From assembly GCF_030013595.1 (NCBI RefSeq), contig NZ_CP122768.1: a stretch of DNA of 64,000 bases, one strand, 5' to 3'. Position 1 is the stretch's first letter, and each line of letters begins with the position of its first letter. Made by a program: the position numbers and the translations under genes. Positions 2,808 to 63,239 of the stretch are shown here, in pieces. Origin of the DNA: Escherichia coli. Its GTDB lineage: Bacteria > Pseudomonadota > Gammaproteobacteria > Enterobacterales > Enterobacteriaceae. The notes beneath the pieces were generated by a model. It did no database searches and had not been told where the DNA came from. It saw nothing but the letters and a program-made list of their open reading frames with translations.

Positions 2808-6209
<3,402 letters not shown>

Positions 6210-10293: not shown

Positions 10294-10877
10294 TGGCATT
10301 CAGAATGAGTGAACAACCACGGACCATAAAAATTTATAATCTGCTGGCCGGAACTAATGAATTTATTGGTGAAGGTGATGCATATATTCCGCCTCATACA
10401 GGTCTGCCAGCAAACAGTACCGATATTGCACCGCCAGATATTCCGGCTGACTTTGTGGCTGTTTTCAACAGTGATGAGGCATCGTGGCATCTCGTTGAAG
10501 ACCATCGGGGTAAAACAGTTTATGACGTGGCATCAGGGGACGCGTTATTTATTTCTGAACTCGGTCCGTTACCGGAAAATGTTACCTGGTTATCGCCGGA
10601 AGGGGAATATCAGAAGTGGAACGGCACAGCCTGGGTGAAAGATGCAGAAGCAGAAAAACTATTCCGGATCCGGGAAGCGGAAGAAACAAAAAACAGCTTG
10701 ATGCAGGTAGCCAGTGAGCATATAGCGCCGCTTCAGGATGCTGTAGATCTGGAGATCGCAACGGAGGAAGAAAACTCGTTGCTGGAAGCCTGGAAGAAGT
10801 ATCGGGTGTTGCTGAACCGTGTTGATACATCAACTGCACCTGATATTGAGTGGCCGGAAGAACCAGACACAATGTAA
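10293..10877 (+). CDS. tfa: Tail fibre assembly protein Tfa
   Basis: 194 aa; [44 protein letters not shown]... matches lambda Tfa as recalled; start overlaps stf stop. Confidence 0.9.
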
Positions 10878-11395: not shown

Positions 11396-11758
11396 TGGTG
11401 GAGCTGGCGGGAGTTGAACCCGCGTCCGAAATTCCTACGTCCTCGGTACTACATGCTTAGTCAGTCTTTACATTCGCTTGCCAGCTGCGGACGGACACGC
11501 CACTAACAAACTAGCCTGATTAAGTTTTAACGCTTCAACCCCAGGCAGGGCTTCCACGCGATCTCTTTTGGGTTTGACCTCTCTTGATCCCCGTCCTAAG
11601 AGCGGAGGCTAGGGAGAGAGGGCTCTAAGCAGGTTATTAAGCTGCTAAAGCGTAGTTTTCGTCGTTTGCGACTATTTTTTGCGGCTTTTTACGAGGCCAA
11701 CCGCCCCTCGGCATGCACCTTGGGTTTCGCAAATCCCGTCGAATCCAGAATCAGCCCC
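11396..11758 (-). ncRNA. ssrA: tmRNA (SsrA, transfer-messenger RNA), 363 nt
   Basis: Reverse complement reads GGGGCTGATTCTGGATTCGACGGGATTTGCGAAACCCAAGGTGCATGCC...GGTTCAACTCCCGCCAGCTCCACCA, i.e. full-length E. coli tmRNA including encoded CCA. Confidence 0.95.
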
Positions 11759-28446: not shown

Positions 28447-29607
28447 TTATGCCGGATCGACTGGTACCACATTCTCGCTTGGGTAACAGCCCAGGACTTT
28501 CATCGAGCGAGTGATTTCACCTAGCTCTTTCAACGCCTGTTGCATTTCCGCTGATTCCAGATTGGCCTGAATATCCAGATAAAACATCTCTTCCCACGGG
28601 TTTCCGTGAATCGGGCGTGATTCCAGACGGGTCATAATCAGATTGTGGTTGCGCAGTACCAGCAACGCTTCAACCAGCGCACCAGCTTGTTGGCCGGTCG
28701 CCATTAACAACGTCGTTTTCGCCGGAACCTGGTCAGAAACGTTAATGGCTTTACGTGCCAACACCACAAATCGGGTGAAGTTTTGTCGCTGATTCGCTTC
28801 AATACGCTCCAGTACCTGCAAACCGTACAAAGTGCCGCCAGCTTCGCTTCCCAACGCAGCAATATGCGGTGATTTTGCCTGTGCAACCTTTTCCATTGCC
28901 GCAGACGTACTTTCGGTATATTCAATCTTCCAGTGTGGATAACGATTAAGGAATTTGCTGCATTGCTGGAATGGCTGCGGATGGCTGTAGACCGTATTAA
29001 TGGTGGATAAATCAGTAGTGCCGGAGACCAACAAACAATGGTCGATAGTTAACGTCATCTCGCCAACAATCGACAAACTGGTATGTTGCAGCAGATCGTA
29101 AACGTCGTTTATGGCACCGGAGCTGGTATTTTCAATCGGTACGACGGCATAGTCGGCCTGGCCGGTTTCCACCTGATTAAAAATATCGGCAAATTTGGCG
29201 CAGCCACTTTCAATGAATTGCTCAAAGTGACGGGCAGCGTACTGACGAGCGGCAAGATGTGAATAGGAGCCTTTGGGGCCGAGAAAAGCAATGCGGGCAG
29301 AGTGTGGATTAATTTTATTGAGATGTTGCTGGAGCAAAGCCTGCTGAGTTAATACGGAATCTTCAATGATGAGCTGGAACAGGCGAGTAATGTAATGGGC
29401 GTCCAGATGGTGCGCTTTACCGAGCGTAATTAATCTTTCCAGTAAATCGCGTTCACGATCAATATCACGTACCGGGCGATGCGAGAGCAGTTTGGCTTTT
29501 CCCACCTCGACGGCCAGTTCGCGCCGCTCTGCGAGTAATGCTAATAATTTTTCATCCAGCGCGCTGATTTTCTCTCGCAGCGCCAGTAACGGGTTTTCCG
29601 ATGTCAT
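28447..29607 (-). CDS. pheA: Bifunctional chorismate mutase / prephenate dehydratase PheA
   Basis: 386 aa, [39 protein letters not shown]... Confidence 0.95.
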
Positions 29608-29630
29608 AGTGTTGCCTTTTTGTTATCAAT

Positions 29631-29660
29631 AAAAAAGGCCCCCCGATTTGGGAGGCCTTA
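29631..29660 (-). terminator. pheA attenuator terminator (minus strand GGCCTCCC-AAATC-GGGGGGCC + T6)
   Basis: GC-rich hairpin followed by T-run on the minus strand between pheL and pheA. Confidence 0.7.
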
Positions 29661-29705
29661 TTGTTCGTCTTCGCATTCTGTTTCACACGACGAAACGCCT
29701 CCCAT

Positions 29706-29753
29706 TCAGGGGAAGGTAAAAAAGAATGCGAAGAAAAACGGTGTGTGTTTCAT
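29706..29753 (-). CDS. pheL: pheA leader peptide PheL (15 aa: [15 protein letters not shown], seven Phe codons)
   Basis: Minus-strand ATG AAA CAC ACA CCG TTT TTC TTC GCA TTC TTT TTT ACC TTC CCC TGA read directly. Confidence 0.85.
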   Translation of the reverse strand: [15 protein letters not shown]

Positions 29754-29809
29754 GTTTGTTTCCTTAAGTGACTTCAGTACAGTACCCGTACTGTTTTCAC
29801 GCTGTCAAC

Positions 29810-29856: not shown

Positions 29857-30252
<396 letters not shown>

Positions 30253-30431
30253 TCAAAATGTGTGATGGAAATCTCATAATTTTGTCACTTTTTGTCAACG
30301 AATCTTTTTTGTGAGAAATCGCAGGAAGAGGTGTTTTTTTACTTGAGGAATATCTCAAAGCGAGCCATATTTGATGAGATCGATAGTGACTAAATCGCTT
30401 CAGTTTCACAACTAACAGAATAAAAAAACGG

Positions 30432-30445
30432 CAGCTCAAGGGCTG
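30432..30445. repeat. Target-site duplication, left copy (CAGCTCAAGGGCTG) flanking IS4
   Basis: Identical 14-mer occurs immediately outside both IS4 ends (30432-30445 and 31872-31885); true TSD 12-14 bp depending on end assignment. Confidence 0.7.
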
Positions 30446-31871
30446 TAATGCCAGTCAGTTAAGCAACTTACTGGCTCTTTTTCGGGGCTGTGGGGTATTT
30501 CCAGGGCCTCTCCTTTACCACTCTCGGGAAGGCCCTTTCCCTTCTTGTCGGTAATTTCACAAGTTGTCCCATACTTGCAAGATCGCGCATCAGCTCCGGT
30601 ATACGTCCCGGTGAAGCGCCCTGCAATGTCATCAGCATTCTCATCACCATTCCGCATGATTCTGAGAAACTCAGTTGATTCGGCCAGTAACCTTTCAGAT
30701 GTTCCGCCATTTTAATCATCTGATATCTCACCAGATTATAAGCCAGTAAGACACCCCACAGCTCTTGCTCCACAAGCTCCGGTTTTTTACTTCTCAGCGT
30801 CAGCCTGCTCAGTTGCATCGTCTGTTTTATCTCCCTGTATCCCAGTTCGATTTCCCAGCGATGACTGTACAGATCCGCCATTTCTCCTCCGGGGAAGCGC
30901 ATGGCGTCCGTCATCGACGTCAGCAGATGGCAGACTTTTCCTTTGCGCGTCACGGTCAGCAGGCGGGCTGTCACTTCATTTCCCAGTCCCGGCCACTTTT
31001 TTCGTGCCTGCGGGCTGGTTTTCAGCTTCACCAGATGATCGCCTTTACCCAGTTTTCTGATCTCTTCATATTGCGCTCCCTTTCTGAGAGGTATCATCCA
31101 GTGGCGGTGTTCTCCCGCCAGGCTCCAGGCATTTAACAGTCCCAGTGAGTAATAACCTTTATCCATTAACGTCAGAGTGTTATCGCCGGTTTGTTCTATA
31201 AGTTGCTCAGCAAGCTCATTTTCGCTGTTCTTCATCGTGCCGAAGGCTGCAGCCGTCAGCAGATGGCTGGTCAGTTCCATCTGGCAGACCATTTTGACCT
31301 GCGGGTAGAGCGCCGGGTTCCCGGCATGTGTCTGGCGGGGGAAGGCTGCATCGTTCTCTGGTGTATCCGGTGTGCGCCAGAACACACCATCGATGGCCAG
31401 CAGGGTCAGGCCGCACCAGTGCGGATGCGGCGTGGCGTTATGCCAGAGCTGCGCTGTTTTCGTGAACACGCGGCGGACAGCCTCACTTCCCAGGCGCTGG
31501 CGGGCCTGAATAACGGCACTGGGAGCAACGAAGGGGCGATTGCCCGGCAGCATGATGTCCAGGCGATTCACAATCTGGTGAAGAGGTTCTTTACGCTCAA
31601 GCGCCATGCCAACAATACACCAGACCATCATTTCGAGGGGAAGACGGCGCTTGCGTAGCGTTACAGTACCTGATTCGGCAAGGCAACGAGAGATGAGTTC
31701 GGGATCGAGGTAATCCCCCAGAGAAGTCAGTGGGTTACGCAGAGAATCGTAACGGGATACCAGATCAAGAGCCTGTCCAATGTGCATAAAAAAATCCGGA
31801 AACAAGTGAGCGTTTCCGGATTCTTACACAGCCACTGGATCGGTCAACTGATCCTTAACTGATCGGCATTA
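30446..31871 (-). mobile_element. Insertion sequence IS4 (1426 bp) with imperfect terminal inverted repeats TAATGCCAGTCAGTTAAG / TAATGCCGATCAGTTAAGG
   Basis: Terminal IRs read from sequence, length equals canonical IS4, single IS4-type DDE transposase ORF, flanking direct repeat. Confidence 0.9.
30468..31805 (-). CDS. insG: IS4 family transposase (InsG)
   Basis: 445-aa ORF matching recalled IS4 transposase; true start may be an internal ATG (MHIGQALD...). Confidence 0.9.
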
Positions 31872-31885
31872 CAGCTCAAGGGCTG
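31872..31885. repeat. Target-site duplication, right copy (CAGCTCAAGGGCTG) flanking IS4
   Basis: See left copy. Confidence 0.7.
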
Positions 31886-31908
31886 CCGTTTTGTGTTTCA
31901 GGTTTTTG

Positions 31909-32646
31909 TTATGTATTGCTGCTGTTTGCAGCGATGATTTTCGCTACTTTTTCAGCTTGCGCATTCATCTGCATCTGACGGTATGCATTTTCCATCAGCG
32001 GCAGCGCATCACGCGTCGCCTGGGTATCCGGGTAGTCGCGCAACATGCCTTCTACGCGGTTAACGACGGCAACCCATGCACCACGTTCTGTATAGTACTC
32101 GGCAACGGAGTATTCATATTTCGCCAGACGATCTTTCAGGAATACCAGACGTTTGGTGGCATCGGTGGTGTACTGACTGTTCGGATAGCCGCGCACCAGT
32201 TTGGAAAAGTCACTAAACGCAGCTCGTGCATGTTGAGGATCGCGATCGCTACGATCAACGCCAAAGAACCCTTGCAGCGCACTGTCATCCAGCGCCATAT
32301 TGGTCAGGCCACGCATGTACATGACATAATCGATATTCGGATGGGTCGGGTTAAGGCGAATAAAACGATCGATGGCAGCCTGCGCTAACGGCAAATCGGC
32401 GTTTTTATAGTAGGCGTAGATGAGATCCAGCTGCACCTGCTGCGAATATGGACCAAACGGATAGCGATTATCTAACGCTTCCAGTTGCGTTATTGCCTGT
32501 CTCCAGTTACCGTCCTGCAGCTTTTGTTGTGCAGTCGCGTAAATTTCATTTGGCGGATTATCAGGTACTTCTTCCTTTGACCCCGAGCAACCCGCCAAAA
32601 ACAGGCTTAGTGTGGCGGCTGCCACCAGATATTTCATGCGCGTCAT
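31909..32646 (-). CDS. bamD: Outer membrane protein assembly factor BamD (YfiO), TPR lipoprotein
   Basis: 245 aa, lipobox LAGCSGS, matches recalled BamD. Confidence 0.95.
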
Positions 32647-32780: not shown

Positions 32781-33761
32781 ATGGCACAACGAGTACAGCT
32801 CACTGCAACGGTGTCCGAAAACCAACTCGGTCAACGCTTAGATCAGGCTTTGGCCGAAATGTTCCCGGATTATTCACGTTCGCGGATAAAAGAATGGATC
32901 CTCGACCAGCGCGTGCTGGTTAACGGCAAAGTTTGTGATAAGCCGAAAGAAAAAGTATTGGGTGGCGAGCAGGTTGCCATCAACGCTGAGATTGAAGAAG
33001 AAGCGCGTTTTGAACCGCAGGATATCCCGCTGGATATTGTCTATGAAGATGACGATATCATCGTCATTAATAAACCACGCGACCTGGTGGTACATCCTGG
33101 CGCGGGTAACCCGGATGGCACGGTACTGAATGCGTTGCTTCATTATTATCCGCCCATTGCCGATGTACCGCGTGCGGGCATCGTCCATCGTCTGGATAAA
33201 GACACCACCGGCCTGATGGTTGTGGCAAAAACCGTTCCGGCTCAGACGCGTTTAGTCGAATCTTTGCAACGGCGTGAAATTACTCGTGAGTATGAAGCGG
33301 TGGCAATTGGTCATATGACCGCTGGCGGTACAGTAGATGAACCAATCAGCCGCCACCCGACCAAACGTACTCACATGGCGGTGCATCCCATGGGCAAACC
33401 GGCGGTCACTCACTATCGCATCATGGAACACTTCCGTGTGCACACGCGTCTGCGGTTGCGTCTGGAAACTGGACGTACGCACCAGATCCGCGTGCATATG
33501 GCCCATATCACTCATCCGCTGGTGGGCGATCCGGTTTATGGTGGCCGTCCGCGTCCGCCAAAAGGTGCTTCGGAAGCGTTTATCTCCACGCTGCGTAAGT
33601 TTGACCGCCAGGCGCTTCATGCAACCATGCTGCGTCTTTATCACCCAATCTCCGGCATCGAAATGGAATGGCATGCGCCTATTCCACAAGATATGGTGGA
33701 GCTGATTGAGGTGATGCGCGCCGATTTCGAAGAGCATAAAGATGAAGTGGACTGGTTATGA
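32781..33761 (+). CDS. rluD: 23S rRNA pseudouridine(1911/1915/1917) synthase RluD
   Basis: 326 aa, S4 domain plus RluA-family catalytic motif (HRLDKDTTGLMVVAK). Confidence 0.95.
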   Translation: MAQRVQLTATVSENQLGQRLDQALAEMFPDYSRSRIKEWILDQRVLVNGKVCDKPKEKVLGGEQVAINAEIEEEARFEPQDIPLDIVYEDDDIIVINKPRDLVVHPGAGNPDGTVLNALLHYYPPIADVPRAGIVHRLDKDTTGLMVVAKTVPAQTRLVESLQRREITREYEAVAIGHMTAGGTVDEPISRHPTKRTHMAVHPMGKPAVTHYRIMEHFRVHTRLRLRLETGRTHQIRVHMAHITHPLVGDPVYGGRPRPPKGASEAFISTLRKFDRQALHATMLRLYHPISGIEMEWHAPIPQDMVELIEVMRADFEEHKDEVDWL

Positions 33762-34489: not shown

Positions 34490-34551
34490 CCTAAAGAATC
34501 AAGACGATCCGGTACGCGTGATTTTCTTTTCACATTAATCTGGTCAATAAC

Positions 34552-34579
34552 CTTGAATAATTGAGGGATGACCTCATTT
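34552..34579 (+). promoter_or_regulatory. Sigma32 heat-shock promoter of clpB (-35 CTTGAAT, 14-bp spacer, -10 CCTCATTT)
   Basis: Match to sigma32 consensus upstream of clpB. Confidence 0.5.
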
Positions 34580-34618
34580 AATCTCCAGTAGCAACTTTGA
34601 TCCGTTATGGGAGGAGTT

Positions 34619-37192
34619 ATGCGTCTGGATCGTCTTACTAATAAATTCCAGCTTGCTCTTGCCGATGCCCAATCACTTGCACTCGGGCACGACAACCAAT
34701 TTATCGAACCACTTCATTTAATGAGCGCCCTGCTGAATCAGGAAGGGGGGTCGGTTAGTCCTTTATTAACATCCGCTGGCATAAATGCTGGCCAGTTGCG
34801 CACAGATATCAATCAGGCATTAAATCGTTTACCGCAGGTTGAAGGTACTGGTGGTGATGTCCAGCCATCACAGGATCTGGTGCGCGTTCTTAATCTTTGC
34901 GACAAGCTGGCGCAAAAACGTGGTGATAACTTTATCTCGTCAGAACTGTTCGTTCTGGCGGCACTTGAGTCTCGCGGCACGCTGGCCGACATCCTGAAAG
35001 CAGCAGGGGCGACCACCGCCAACATTACTCAAGCGATTGAACAAATGCGTGGAGGTGAAAGCGTGAACGATCAAGGTGCTGAAGACCAACGTCAGGCTTT
35101 GAAAAAATATACCATCGACCTTACCGAACGAGCCGAACAGGGCAAACTCGATCCGGTGATTGGTCGTGATGAAGAAATTCGCCGTACCATTCAGGTGCTG
35201 CAACGTCGTACTAAAAATAACCCAGTACTGATTGGTGAACCCGGCGTCGGTAAAACTGCCATCGTTGAAGGTCTGGCGCAGCGTATTATCAACGGCGAAG
35301 TGCCGGAAGGGTTGAAAGGCCGCCGCGTACTGGCGCTGGATATGGGCGCGCTGGTGGCTGGGGCGAAATATCGCGGTGAGTTTGAAGAACGTTTAAAAGG
35401 CGTGCTTAACGATCTTGCCAAACAGGAAGGCAACGTCATCCTGTTTATCGACGAATTACATACCATGGTCGGCGCGGGTAAAGCCGATGGCGCAATGGAC
35501 GCCGGAAACATGCTGAAACCGGCGCTGGCGCGTGGTGAATTGCACTGCGTAGGTGCCACGACGCTTGACGAATATCGCCAGTACATCGAAAAAGATGCTG
35601 CGCTGGAACGTCGTTTCCAGAAAGTGTTTGTTGCCGAGCCTTCTGTTGAAGACACCATTGCTATTCTGCGTGGCTTAAAAGAACGTTACGAACTGCACCA
35701 CCATGTGCAAATTACTGACCCGGCAATTGTTGCAGCGGCGACGTTGTCTCATCGCTACATTGCTGACCGTCAGCTGCCGGATAAAGCCATCGACCTGATC
35801 GATGAAGCAGCATCCAGCATTCGTATGCAGATTGACTCAAAACCAGAAGAACTCGACCGACTCGATCGTCGTATCATCCAGCTCAAACTGGAACAACAGG
35901 CGTTAATGAAAGAGTCTGATGAAGCCAGTAAAAAACGCCTGGATATGCTCAACGAAGAACTGAGCGACAAAGAACGTCAGTACTCCGAGTTAGAAGAAGA
36001 GTGGAAAGCAGAGAAAGCATCGCTTTCTGGTACACAGACCATTAAAGCGGAACTGGAACAGGCGAAAATCGCTATTGAACAGGCTCGCCGTGTGGGTGAC
36101 CTGGCGCGGATGTCTGAACTGCAATACGGCAAAATCCCGGAACTGGAAAAGCAACTGGAAGCCGCAACGCAGCTCGAAGGCAAAACTATGCGTCTGTTGC
36201 GTAATAAAGTGACCGACGCCGAAATTGCTGAAGTGCTGGCGCGTTGGACGGGGATTCCGGTTTCTCGCATGATGGAAAGCGAGCGCGAAAAACTGCTGCG
36301 TATGGAGCAAGAGCTGCACCATCGCGTTATTGGTCAGAACGAAGCGGTTGATGCGGTATCTAACGCTATTCGTCGTAGCCGCGCAGGGCTTGCTGACCCG
36401 AATCGCCCGATTGGTTCATTCCTGTTCCTCGGCCCAACCGGTGTGGGGAAAACTGAGCTTTGTAAGGCGCTGGCGAACTTTATGTTTGATAGCGACGAGG
36501 CGATGATCCGTATCGATATGTCCGAGTTTATGGAGAAACACTCGGTGTCTCGTCTGGTTGGTGCGCCTCCGGGATATGTCGGTTATGAAGAAGGTGGCTA
36601 CCTGACCGAAGCGGTGCGTCGTCGTCCGTATTCCGTCATCCTGCTGGATGAAGTGGAAAAAGCGCATCCGGATGTCTTCAACATTCTGTTGCAGGTACTG
36701 GATGATGGGCGTCTGACTGACGGGCAGGGGAGAACGGTCGACTTCCGTAATACGGTTGTCATTATGACCTCTAACCTCGGTTCCGATTTGATTCAGGAAC
36801 GCTTCGGTGAACTGGATTATGCGCACATGAAAGAGCTGGTGCTCGGTGTGGTAAGCCATAACTTCCGTCCGGAATTCATTAACCGTATCGATGAAGTGGT
36901 GGTCTTCCATCCGCTGGGTGAACAGCACATTGCGTCGATTGCGCAGATTCAGTTGAAACGTCTGTACAAACGTCTGGAAGAACGTGGTTATGAAATCCAC
37001 ATTTCTGACGAGGCGCTGAAACTGCTGAGCGAGAACGGTTACGATCCGGTCTATGGTGCACGTCCTCTGAAACGTGCAATTCAGCAGCAGATTGAAAACC
37101 CGCTGGCACAGCAAATACTGTCTGGTGAATTGGTTCCGGGTAAAGTGATTCGCCTGGAAGTTAATGAAGACCGGATTGTCGCCGTCCAGTAA
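34619..37192 (+). CDS. clpB: Chaperone ClpB (Hsp100 disaggregase)
   Basis: 857 aa from [18 protein letters not shown]; two AAA+ modules ([16 protein letters not shown]); ATG at 34619 preceded by GGGAGGAG. Confidence 0.95.
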
Positions 37193-37636: not shown

Positions 37637-39178
<1,542 letters not shown>

Positions 39179-39263
39179 CCTTAAAGAAGCGTACTTTGCA
39201 GTGCTCACACAGATTGTCTGATAGAAAGTGAAAAGCAAGGCGTCTTGCGAAGCAGACTGATAC

Positions 39264-39339
39264 GTCCCCTTCGTCTAGAGGCCCAGGACACCGCCCTTTC
39301 ACGGCGGTAACAGGGGTTCGAATCCCCTAGGGGACGCCA
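39264..39339 (+). tRNA. gltW: tRNA-Glu (anticodon UUC) in the 16S-23S spacer
   Basis: GTCCCCTTCGTCTAGAGGCCCAGGACACCGCCCTTTCACGGCGGTAACAGGGGTTCGAATCCCCTAGGGGACGCCA. Confidence 0.95.
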
Positions 39340-39532
39340 CTTGCTGGTTTGTGAGTGAAAGTCACCTGCCTTAATATCTCAAAACTCATCTTCGGGTGAT
39401 GTTTGAGATATTTGCTCTTTAAAAATCTGGATCAAGCTGAAAATTGAAACACTGAACAACGAAAGTTGTTCGTGAGTCTCTCAAATTTTCGCAACACGAT
39501 GATGAATCGAAAGAAACATCTTCGGGTTGTGA

Positions 39533-42437
<2,905 letters not shown>

Positions 42438-42529
42438 ACAACGCCGAAGATGTTTTGGCGGATGAGAGAAGATTTTCAGCCTGATACAGATTAACTCAGA
42501 ACGCAGAAGCGGTCTGATGAAACAGAATT

Positions 42530-42649
42530 TGCCTGGCGGCCTTAGCGCGGTGGTCCCACCTGACCCCATGCCGAACTCAGAAGTGAAACGCCGTAGCGCC
42601 GATGGTAGTGTGGGGTCTCCCCATGCGAGAGTAGGGAACTGCCAGGCAT
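42530..42649 (+). rRNA. rrfG: 5S ribosomal RNA (120 nt)
   Basis: TGCCTGGCGGCCTTAGCGCGGTGGTCCCACCTGACCCCATGCCGAACTCAG...GGAACTGCCAGGCAT. Confidence 0.95.
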
Positions 42650-59810: not shown

Positions 59811-60766
59811 TGAAGCAACTTTGGTTTGCCATGTCATTAGTGACAGGTAGCCTGTTATTCTCTGCTAACGCCTCGGCCACTCCCGCGTCCGGGGCGTTAT
59901 TACAGCAGATGAACCTGGCCAGTCAGTCACTGAATTACGAGCTGTCATTCATCAGCATCAATAAACAGGGTGTTGAGTCTCTGCGTTATCGACATGCACG
60001 CCTCGATAACCGTCCTCTTGCACAATTGTTGCAAATGGATGGCCCGCGCCGGGAAGTGGTACAGCGCGGCAATGAAATCAGCTATTTTGAACCGGGACTT
60101 GAACCGTTCACGCTTAATGGCGATTACATTGTTGATTCTCTGCCATCGCTCATCTATACCGATTTCAAACGCCTTTCTCCTTACTACGACTTTATCTCCG
60201 TCGGGCGGACGCGTATTGCTGATCGTCTTTGCGAAGTTATTCGCGTGGTTGCCCGAGATGGTACACGCTACAGCTACATCGTGTGGATGGACACCGAATC
60301 GAAATTACCGATGAGGGTTGATCTCCTTGATCGCGATGGTGAAACGCTGGAACAATTTCGCGTGATTGCTTTTAATGTCAATCAGGAAATCAGCAGCAGT
60401 ATGCAGACGCTGGCGAAGGCAAATTTGCCGCCGTTGCTTTCTGTTCCTGTAGGTGAAAAAGCTAAATTCAGCTGGACGCCAACCTGGTTGCCACAGGGTT
60501 TTAGCGAAGTTTCCAGTAGTCGACGTCCGCTACCGACGATGGACAACATGCCTATCGAATCACGTCTCTATTCCGACGGATTATTCAGCTTCTCGGTAAA
60601 CGTTAACCGCGCTACGCCATCGAGCACCGATCAGATGTTGCGCACCGGGCGCAGAACCGTCAGTACAAGCGTACGTGATAACGCCGAAATCACCATTGTC
60701 GGTGAACTGCCGCCGCAAACGGCGAAACGCATTGCCGAGAATATTAAGTTCGGGGCAGCGCAATGA
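59810..60766 (+). CDS. rseB: Sigma-E regulatory protein RseB
   Basis: 318 aa with signal peptide, start overlaps rseA stop. Confidence 0.95.
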   Translation: MKQLWFAMSLVTGSLLFSANASATPASGALLQQMNLASQSLNYELSFISINKQGVESLRYRHARLDNRPLAQLLQMDGPRREVVQRGNEISYFEPGLEPFTLNGDYIVDSLPSLIYTDFKRLSPYYDFISVGRTRIADRLCEVIRVVARDGTRYSYIVWMDTESKLPMRVDLLDRDGETLEQFRVIAFNVNQEISSSMQTLAKANLPPLLSVPVGEKAKFSWTPTWLPQGFSEVSSSRRPLPTMDNMPIESRLYSDGLFSFSVNVNRATPSSTDQMLRTGRRTVSTSVRDNAEITIVGELPPQTAKRIAENIKFGAAQ

Positions 60767-61242
60767 TCAAAGAGTGGGCTACCGTCGTCTCCTGGGAAAA
60801 CGGGCAGGCGCTGGTCAGTTGTGATGTTAAAGCCTCATGCAGCAGCTGCGCTTCACGTGCCGGTTGCGGTAGCCGCGTGTTGAATAAACTTGGCCCGCAA
60901 ACCACGCATACTATTGTCGTACCCTGTGATGAGCCGTTAGTGCCGGGGCAAAAAGTAGAATTAGGAATCGCCGAAGGCAGCCTGCTTAGCTCCGCATTAC
61001 TGGTTTATATGTCGCCGTTGATGGGACTATTCCTCATCGCTTCACTATTTCAGCTACTCTTTGCTTCAGATATTGCAGCATTATGCGGTGCGATTCTCGG
61101 TGGCGTTGGTGGATTCCTGATTGCACGTGGCTGCTCTCGAAAGTTTGCTGCCCGGTCTGAATGGCAACCGATCATCTTAAGCGTGGCATTGCCGCCTGGC
61201 CTTGTGCGATTTGAAACATCTTCGGAAGACGCGAGCCAGTGA
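60763..61242 (+). CDS. rseC: Sigma-E regulatory protein RseC
   Basis: 159 aa, Cys-rich N-terminus and two TM segments; overlaps rseB stop. Confidence 0.95.
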   Translation: MIKEWATVVSWENGQALVSCDVKASCSSCASRAGCGSRVLNKLGPQTTHTIVVPCDEPLVPGQKVELGIAEGSLLSSALLVYMSPLMGLFLIASLFQLLFASDIAALCGAILGGVGGFLIARGCSRKFAARSEWQPIILSVALPPGLVRFETSSEDASQ

Positions 61243-61439
61243 TTTCACTGGCTTTGTTGCATTTTGCATAACAAATGCGAGGACGTTTCCAGATACCACA
61301 ATCCATACGGTATGAACATTTCCTCGCCTCAATGTTGTAGTGTAGAATGCGGCGTTTCTATTAATACAGACGTTAAGCTCAGAACAGCGACTTCTAAAAG
61401 CCTGGTTAACCGGGCATTAAGGCACAATAATCATACTTT

Positions 61440-63239
<1,800 letters not shown>

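Follow-up and report, generated by a model that had tools for sequence, protein, structure and literature searches.

IS4 at the bamD terminator of Escherichia coli: a recurrent insertion at a preferred target

Introduction

Between bamD and raiA, in a 64,000-nucleotide stretch of Escherichia coli DNA (contig NZ_CP122768.1; hereafter, the window), an IS4 element interrupts what reads as the bamD terminator. The locus raises the question of why the element is there. The first-pass annotation of the sequence treated the insertion chiefly as a regulatory event, expecting bamD read-through and possibly altered raiA expression. We propose instead, with a probability that we put at roughly 0.85, that an intact IS4 transposed into a target preferred by its transposase, and that the bamD terminator is the best such target in the window, recurrently struck and tolerated.

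Results

The element lies on the minus strand at positions 30446 to 31871 (1,426 bp) and is 99.5% identical, across its whole length, to insG as found in K-12-type and HB101 genomes. Its terminal inverted repeats, TAATGCCAGTCAGTTAAG and TAATGCCGATCAGTTAAG (IRR, 30446-30463; IRL, 31854-31871), match at 16 of 18 positions, and its length and TAATGCC ends agree with the 1,400-1,650 bp and the -AATR end signature of the IS4 subgroup (PMC2266710, Table 1). The transposase reading frame (30468-31787, minus strand) is intact. Counted from its ATG, the protein has 439 aa; PGAP, which names the product "IS4-like element IS4 family transposase", starts at the TTG at 31805 and obtains 445 aa. A profile search against NCBIfam NF033592 (transpos_IS4_1) returned 304.5 bits, where the cutoff is 115, and an identical protein carries the Pfam domains PF13006 (Nterm_IS4) and PF01609 (DDE_Tnp_1). 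The element is a standard, intact IS4 of the IS4 family, IS4 subgroup, and its identity had been correctly recognized in the earlier reading of the sequence. It resembles K-12 insG, the founding member of the family, in length, in its 18-bp imperfect repeats starting TAATGCC, in its single DDE transposase with both of these domains and in its long target duplication. It differs in that the resident K-12 copy occupies another chromosomal site, and in a TCA>TAA change at 30469, which shortens the transposase by 3 aa relative to the common 442/448-aa form.

Exact copies of a 14-bp sequence, CAGCTCAAGGGCTG, flank the element on the left (30432-30445) and on the right (31872-31885), as the annotation had stated; because the bases flanking each copy differ, the duplication is exactly 14 bp. 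Beyond it, the left target arm (30422-30431) consists of an A7 run and CGG, which on the bamD sense strand become CCG and the U7 tail of the terminator, and the right arm, CCGTTTTGTG (31886-31895), reads CACAAAACGG on that strand and supplies the 5' base of the terminator stem. Joining the flanks through a single copy of CAGCTCAAGGGCTG yields AAAAAAACGGCAGCTCAAGGGCTGCCGTTTTGTG, which is the true empty bamD-raiA site of a K-12-type genome (L004), where the single-copy sequence and the reconstructed hairpin are both present. Folding of this empty site on the bamD sense strand gives an 11-bp stem (7 G/C-rich pairs and 4 A-U pairs), a 6-nt loop and the U7 tail, at -16.8 kcal/mol (z -6.0), so that by sequence and shape it is a predicted intrinsic terminator; a literature search for a bamD terminator found nothing. 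The bamD coding sequence (31909-32646, minus strand) ends with a stop codon at 31909-31911; the hairpin begins 16 nt past it and IS4 lies 37 nt from it, which corrects the distance of 38 bp given earlier for the terminator.

The staggered cuts fall in the stem (CGG/CAGC...GCTG/CCG, slashes marking the cuts), and not in the loop as had been proposed: what was duplicated is the loop together with the top 4 bp of both stem arms. The expectation that the insertion splits the hairpin is nevertheless confirmed by folding, which recovers it in neither half and leaves, on the raiA side, a 4-bp stem alone before the U7 tract. The description of the terminator as bidirectional applies to its shape, since A7 and T-rich runs flank the stem, but not to its function: no genes converge on the site, bamD and raiA both being on the minus strand. 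At 14 bp, the duplication is longer than the 10-13 bp given for the IS4 subgroup (PMC2266710). Among the 25 distinct IS4 sites described below, however, duplications of 14 bp occur in 4, alongside lengths of 11 bp (3), 12 bp (13) and 13 bp (6). The copy in the window is not atypical, and the published range appears too narrow.

To what extent could this location have been anticipated? From 30 loci, 25 distinct IS4 sites were obtained, and the target model built on the 24 sites other than bamD consists of an A-run, 3 bp, a cut, CNSC...GSNG, a second cut, 3 bp and a T-run, with duplications of 11-14 bp. In the pooled-arm profile of the 25 sites, A prevails at positions -9 to -4 (32-46 of 52), G at -2 (35 of 52) and C at +1 (41 of 52) and +4 (44 of 52). 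A weight matrix trained on 24 sites, with the bamD site excluded, placed bamD first among 62,560 window positions, scanned at four spacings, with 26.6 bits at exactly the observed cuts. The second-best target in the window is the pheA attenuator, 790 bp away, and the third-ranked position scores 17.9 bits. Since the bamD site ranks first under an independently trained model, and since it has been occupied in both orientations by separate events (see below), its location is not random, which weighs against the view that IS4 hit the terminator by chance. De Palmenaer et al. can be cited in support of the explanation proposed here.

Most of the 25 sites are located at gene 3' ends, and terminators carrying IS4 in a similar way include those of rpoD, eno, aroA, adhE/tdk, glmS and ssb. 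In just over half of the sites (13 of 25), folding is better than at the 1st percentile for random segments (Mann-Whitney test, p = 4e-10). About 10 of 25 are not hairpins, which implies that IS4 recognizes sequence arms and not terminators as such. Hairpin complementarity as a targeting requirement was accordingly rejected: perfect complementarity of the 3-bp flanks was found in 10 of 26 sites, and about 10 of 25 do not fold. The enrichment of terminators among surviving IS4 copies may be due in part to selection. At single-gene 3'-end sites we saw no clear orientation bias, with some 6 copies co-directional with the gene and 3 opposed (counted by eye).

The bamD-raiA site was then compared across 5,426 complete E. 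coli genomes, an empty site being called at a query coverage of at least 80%. It is empty in 5,009 of them. IS4 is present in the orientation of the window in 336 and inverted, at the same cut points, in 70, a split that counts genomes and not insertion events. Together these 406 genomes represent about 7-7.5% of the set, and occupancy among genomes carrying IS4 is approximately 15%. The element at bamD is thus a known one at a recurrent hotspot, a real but ordinary polymorphism that RefSeq has already annotated in hundreds of genomes. The pheA attenuator, by contrast, was found intact in 5,425 of 5,425 genomes, without a single IS4.

Such a distribution might go back to a single ancient insertion that was inherited vertically or passed on through recombination; the inverted copies would then have arisen by inversion in place, and no hotspot would be involved. 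Some of the material could be read in this way: flanks and IS4 alike are identical in the window, L001 and L005; relative to the window, two other copies in the same orientation (L036 and L037) show 7-8 SNPs in the flanks and 3-5 within IS4, which could reflect divergence after one old event; and one copy of the duplication in L036 has since mutated, suggesting an old insertion. The inverted copies, however, make a single origin very improbable. The 18-bp inverted repeats offer no plausible route for inversion in place, and the inverted elements show four further IS4 differences. Among the inverted copies, L002 has a 14-bp duplication. That of L003, 13 bp long and present on both sides, matches a 13-nt empty haplotype, and the L003 flanks differ by 1 SNP from the empty site of UPEC 536. 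The IS4 variants of the insertion classes differ from one another by 3-7 nt. Taken together, the flank haplotypes, the IS4 variants and the 13-bp duplication, which belongs to a lineage whose loop is shorter, point to three or more independent insertions at bamD.

It remains to be asked what the insertion would do to its neighbours. The raiA coding sequence (29857-30198, minus strand) starts 247 nt past the right end of IS4, in line with the earlier estimate of about 250 bp, and the transposase does read toward it, as the annotation had pointed out. The regulatory interpretation, in which a chance hit matters through bamD read-through and through altered raiA expression caused by transposase or read-through transcription, draws on this arrangement, on the destruction of the hairpin on both sides of the element and on the lack of a convincing terminator between the transposase stop and raiA, where a terminator scan and folding found only the 4-bp stem before U7. 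Other features argue against it. The predicted raiA core promoter (30228-30276, minus strand) is intact about 180-220 bp beyond the end of IS4, with a CRP-like site, TGTGATGGAAATCTCA, at 30261-30276, a -10 element, TATGCT, at 30235-30240 and a start near 30228; control of raiA by cAMP-CRP has been reported (PMC8778775), and the positions given here are our own prediction. A consensus scan found no outward promoter-like site from IS4 toward raiA. Inverted copies persist in the population, yet cannot exert the same transcriptional effect.

IS4 also appears to bring a terminator-like structure of its own. At its left end (31788-31825, minus strand) a hairpin with a 15-bp stem, a 6-nt loop and a U7 tract ending at the transposase ATG folds at -18.4 kcal/mol (z -6.2), matching the lost terminator in stability, and it faces bamD some 120 nt beyond the stop codon. 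This hairpin may stand in for the lost terminator on bamD transcripts and may act as a shield against transcription arriving from outside. A simple consensus terminator scan did not list it, which we ascribe to an extension of the stem that uses up the T-run, and folding was used in its place. A promoter-like site (31820-31847, minus strand; TTGACC, 16 nt, AAGAAT, with TG), identified by consensus match only, places its -10 over the 5' arm of the hairpin, so that only transcripts entering from outside would hold the whole structure. Three GATC sites (31838, 31850 and 31861) lie in the same left end. Two inward-facing hairpins at the right end, considered as terminators for the inverted copies, were rejected because they did not surpass shuffled sequence (z -1.2 and -1.8).

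From this arrangement we would expect bamD transcripts to end at the IS4-borne hairpin and U-run, or by Rho, and raiA expression to be little changed; any effect on bamD read-through or on raiA is probably small. Together with the target ranking and the separate events in both orientations, these considerations leave a random hit of mainly regulatory significance unlikely. The insertion is probably tolerated because of its position, past the bamD stop and about 220 bp before the raiA promoter, where it strikes neither coding sequence nor core promoter. That it is close to neutral we read from two things only, its frequency and the presence of both orientations. A literature search for IS4 together with raiA and bamD found nothing usable.

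Discussion

We suggest that IS4 arrived by cut-and-paste transposition, through the DDE mechanism typical of its family, at a site that its transposase prefers. The target is two-armed and roughly symmetric, each arm comprising an A-run of about 5-6, 3 bp with G favoured at -2, the cut, and C-N-S-C; the arms are separated by 11-14 bp, and the stagger of the cuts varies with this separation. Intrinsic terminators with a G+C-rich stem between an A-run and a T-run match this pattern. On each strand at bamD, joining of the element's ends would have taken place 3 bp within the stem, and repair of the gaps would have doubled the 14 bp of loop and upper stem, destroying the hairpin. Such insertions have arisen three or more times, with the element facing either way, and persist in about 7.5% of complete E. 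coli genomes.

Could the site instead have been selected repeatedly for a beneficial change in bamD or raiA expression? Its occupancy in 406 of 5,426 genomes and in some 15% of IS4 carriers, and its gain on at least three occasions, would be in keeping with selection, and the absence of IS4 from the second-best target shows selection acting on which sites we observe. We nonetheless consider this improbable. Both orientations are present at bamD, the hotspot is predicted by target preference alone, and IS4 sits similarly at many other terminators, from rpoD to ssb; the empty pheA attenuator, for its part, speaks for purifying selection against polarity and not for positive selection at bamD.

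The preference for A/T-flanked terminators has possible precedents. Mayaux et al., writing in Gene in 1984, are said to have described an IS4 insertion in the pheS,T attenuator and to have given an AAA-N20-TTT target rule; a literature search on an IS4 target rule, on IS4 with the pheS attenuator and on IS4 with terminators or hairpins found nothing usable. The likeness is that IS4 enters a terminator-type hairpin lying between an A run and a T run, and the bamD site fits the rule exactly (AAA CGG, 14 bp, CCG TTT). In contrast to a fixed N20, the spacing from A-run to T-run ranges over 17-20 bp in the 25 sites analyzed here, and the rule is extended by preferences for C (+1, +4) and for G (-2). 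The bamD site also ends a transcription unit, so that, unlike an attenuator hit, an insertion there should not alter a downstream gene of the same operon. IS231A, for which Hallet et al. reportedly defined in 1994 a GGG-N5-CCC target flanked by A/T tracts, belongs to the same IS family and shares the symmetric G+C core, the A/T-rich arms and duplications of similar length (10-12 bp), but it is a different element, with a Bacillus host and another core consensus. Tn7 at attTn7, downstream of glmS, likewise inserts just past an essential gene and spares its coding sequence, using the terminator as a safe harbour, and one IS4 copy (L019) lies at the glmS 3' end. Tn7, however, uses a dedicated target-selector protein that reads the end of the glmS coding sequence, whereas the apparent cue for IS4 is a short symmetric motif, degenerate and present at many terminators. 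Finally, RNA fold-back shields the transposases of IS10 and IS50 from outside transcription. IS4 resembles them in placing a strong hairpin over the transposase start region, and differs in that its hairpin is followed by a U-run and may terminate transcription, not only block translation.

We offer a broader proposal, tentatively and with the odds somewhat against it: IS4 may behave as a "terminator hopper", reading both arms of A/T-flanked terminators and cutting a constant 3 bp inside each, with the target, and not the enzyme, setting a duplication of 11-14 bp and the element's own hairpin and U-run replacing the lost terminator while shielding the transposase gene. Were this true, operon-end insertions would be nearly neutral, which would explain both the recurrence at bamD, rpoD, eno, aroA and adhE/tdk and the absence at the pheA attenuator.

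The insertion is of little importance for the biology of bamD or raiA, being a common and apparently tolerated polymorphism. Its value is modest and lies in providing a clean natural example of target choice by an insertion sequence: the same stretch of 14 bp (or 13 bp) has been struck independently in both orientations, and the cut positions follow the hairpin arms and not a fixed stagger. An equally good target, the pheA attenuator, lies close by and is never occupied, so that the locus shows preference in targeting alongside purifying selection. To genome annotators, the A-run/T-run motif of terminators indicates where IS4 polymorphisms and IS4-mediated inversions are to be expected.

The element downstream of bamD and the hairpin that it splits

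On the minus strand, pheA (28447-29607), the Phe leader (29629-29754, an Rfam match), raiA (29857-30198), the inserted element (30446-31871) and bamD (31909-32646) lie together, and rluD (32781-33761) lies on the plus strand. This element has a length of 1,426 bp and ends (TAATGCCAGTCAGTTAAG and TAATGCCGATCAGTTAAG) that are identical at 16/18 positions, and the exact direct repeat CAGCTCAAGGGCTG stands on both sides of it (30432-30445 and 31872-31885). The bases adjoining the two copies differ, so that the duplication is exactly 14 bp, as the first-pass annotation had read it. The sole ORF is on the minus strand and reads toward raiA, as that annotation had it; counted from an ATG at 31787 it encodes 439 aa, and from the TTG chosen by PGAP 445 aa. 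It scores 304.5 bits against NCBIfam transpos_IS4_1 (cutoff 115), and an identical protein carries the Pfam domains Nterm_IS4 and DDE_Tnp_1. At the DNA level the element shares 99.5% identity with the insG copies found in K-12-type genomes. The element is IS4 itself, and agrees with it in every feature tested except that the duplication falls outside the 10-13 bp published for the IS4 subgroup (PMC2266710).

At 30469 this copy has TAA where the common IS4 variant has TCA, and its transposase therefore lacks the last three residues (439/445 aa rather than 442/448 aa). The identical short transposase is present at at least 10 distinct sites with clean duplications, and the variant looks active. 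Three GATC (Dam) sites (31838, 31850 and 31861) are clustered in the outermost 34 nt of the left end, one inside the terminal repeat and one overlapping a -35-like TTGACC; there are none in the right-end repeat. IS10 and IS50 are under Dam control, which this left-end cluster resembles. Elsewhere in the window, Rfam matches IS009 RNA (10636-10834), tmRNA (ssrA, 11396-11758), RyfD (34500-34638), a complete rRNA operon with a tRNA in its spacer (37637-42647) and AsrC, antisense to rseC (60727-61558), a layout that fits the K-12 region at ~2.7 Mb in reversed orientation.

Deleting IS4 and one repeat copy joins the flanks into AAAAAAACGGCAGCTCAAGGGCTGCCGTTTTGTG, and exactly this sequence, the hairpin that had been reconstructed earlier, is found in the bamD-raiA spacer of a K-12-type genome. 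Read as RNA from the bamD sense strand, it forms an 11-bp stem (AAAACGGCAGC/GCUGCCGUUUU) with a 6-nt loop and a U7 tail, starting 16 nt after the bamD stop (-16.8 kcal/mol, z -6.0; -18.9 kcal/mol, z -5.0 with flanks included); the empty site has all the sequence features of an intrinsic terminator and is predicted to act as one. The first-pass annotation was right to place IS4 in this hairpin and to state that neither side keeps the full stem, but the cuts lie in the stem and not, as it had proposed, in the loop (CGG|CAGC...GCTG|CCG), and the loop and upper stem are what is duplicated. Each half, on the bamD side and on the raiA side, retains just a 4-bp CAGC/GCUG stem, and its folding energy does not stand out from that of shuffled sequence (z -1.7 and -2.0).

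IS4 target preference

Using three exact transposase variants, we gathered 30 further IS4 loci, which gave 25 distinct sites with clean duplications. Duplication lengths were 11 bp (3), 12 bp (13), 13 bp (6) and 14 bp (4), and 14 bp is hence a normal minority outcome for IS4 in the sampled sites. Pooling both arms (n=52), A is favoured from position -9 to -4 relative to the cut (32-46/52), G at -2 (35/52), and C at +1 (41/52) and +4 (44/52). This profile describes a target composed of an A-run, N-G-S, the cut, C-N-S-C ... G-S-N-G, the second cut, S-C-N and a T-run, with variable spacing between the two arms. A weight matrix built from 24 sites, with bamD left out, was scanned over the window minus IS4 (62,560 positions, four spacings). 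The bamD site ranked first, at the observed cuts and with the 14-bp spacing (26.6 bits), followed by the pheL-pheA attenuator terminator (24.4 bits) and, well below, by the next best site (17.9 bits). A preference of IS4 for particular targets also has published support (De Palmenaer et al., 2008).

Of the 25 sites, 13 have a more stable fold than the 1st percentile of random 27-30-mers drawn from the window (Mann-Whitney p = 4e-10). By gene calls, ~14 are located at the 3' end of a gene or between convergent genes, including adhE/tdk, rpoD/mug, aroA, mukB, glmS, glgP, eno and ssb/yjcB; about ten sites are not hairpins, and three or four lie in coding sequence. In our reading, what the transposase recognises is the sequence of the arms in duplex DNA and not a terminator in itself; terminators with an A-run on one side and a T-run on the other would happen to fit those arms, and selection would let such insertions survive. 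As early as 1984, Mayaux et al. reportedly described IS4 in the pheS,T attenuator together with an AAA-N20-TTT rule, which the bamD site fits exactly.

The second-best target (29635-29659, predicted cut site 29641-29654) lies 790 bp from the bamD site, and is intact in 5,425/5,425 matching E. coli genomes. It presumably stays unoccupied because IS4 at that position would come between pheA and its promoter, whereas the bamD site follows a stop codon and precedes a gene with its own predicted promoter. This contrast would fit target preference combined with purifying selection.

Among the gathered loci, IS4 occupies the shared terminator of convergent adhE and tdk in both orientations in different genomes, and another copy lies shortly beyond glmS, close to the Tn7 attachment site. 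In GCA_052122925.1 (CM125673.1), two copies with hybrid flanks (ldtD|IS4|ycaL and aroA|IS4|mukB) do not have matching duplications, which indicates that the chromosome has been inverted between the IS4 copies at the terminators of aroA and mukB.

A recurrent insertion hotspot

Among 5,426 complete E. coli genomes, the bamD-raiA site is empty in 5,009 (400-nt reconstruction as query, coverage >=80%), holds IS4 in the orientation of the window in 336 (junction coverage >=80%), and holds it inverted in 70, for which the query was a synthetic junction with IS4 flipped and its position unchanged. SCU-313 carries an inverted copy with the same 14-bp duplication as the window, and UPEC132 an inverted copy with a 13-bp duplication, CAGCTCAAGGCTG. 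This 13-nt version, with a loop one base shorter, is the empty site of UPEC 536, whose flanks are 1 SNP from those of UPEC132. Pairwise comparison of the flanks of the window, SCU-313 and UPEC132 gives 12-14 SNPs over 1,300 bp, and 7 nt separate the inverted copies from the copy in the window; these differences in flanks and IS4 copies show that at least three independent insertions have taken place, in each of which both cuts fell 3 bp inside the stem. Two further genomes with IS4 in the same orientation as the window (L036 and L037) are separated from it by 7-8 SNPs in the flanks and 3-5 SNPs in IS4, and may represent a fourth event or an old one. In L036 (AR Bank #0349), the right repeat copy has a G>A change (CAGCTCAAGGACTG), a post-insertion mutation which suggests that the insertion in that lineage is not recent.

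IS4 occurs in 2,685/5,426 genomes at 5,488 places, and the bamD site therefore holds ~7% of all copies. The first-pass annotation missed that this is a preferred target and a recurrent hotspot. Hundreds of RefSeq genomes already carry an annotation of the insertion; our literature search found no paper joining IS4 with raiA and bamD. In strain HCP5S3_I2 (1-2460 of the fetched locus), the place of pheL-pheA next to raiA is taken by genes for an ATP-dependent nuclease and a truncated DNA methyltransferase, which points to an island or a rearrangement downstream of raiA.

Consequences for bamD and raiA

The expectation of bamD read-through and possibly altered raiA expression was probably overstated. 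On the raiA side, the window's only match to the CRP consensus TGTGA-N6-TCACA with <=1 mismatch is at 30261-30276, and a TATGCT -10 at 30235-30240 predicts a raiA start near 30228, which centres the CRP site ~41 nt before it; control of raiA by cAMP-CRP, ppGpp and FNR has been reported (PMC8778775). The predicted core promoter is untouched, since IS4 ends ~218 bp upstream of the predicted start. Folding found no good terminator between the transposase stop and raiA, so weak read-out toward raiA is possible, and no Rfam families mapped to the bamD-raiA spacer. The persistence of both IS4 orientations in nature argues against a strong orientation-dependent effect.

In the window's orientation, bamD transcripts would enter IS4 at its left end, where a 15-bp hairpin ~47-84 nt inside the element (31825 down to 31790) has a U7 tract ending at the transposase ATG and matches or exceeds the lost terminator in stability (-18.4 kcal/mol, z -6.2). 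If it terminates, the bamD 3' UTR would lengthen from about 47 nt to about 121 nt. Rho would also have access to untranslated read-through RNA. The 5' arm of the hairpin contains the -10 of a promoter-like site (TTGACC, 16 nt, AAGAAT), and IS4's own transcript is therefore predicted to lack the arm that outside transcripts contain. IS10 and IS50 are shielded from outside transcription by a comparable arrangement, which this overlap resembles. It is possible, if somewhat doubtful, that terminators are a habitat to which IS4 has become adapted, with cuts at fixed positions in the arms and a hairpin of its own to replace the one lost.
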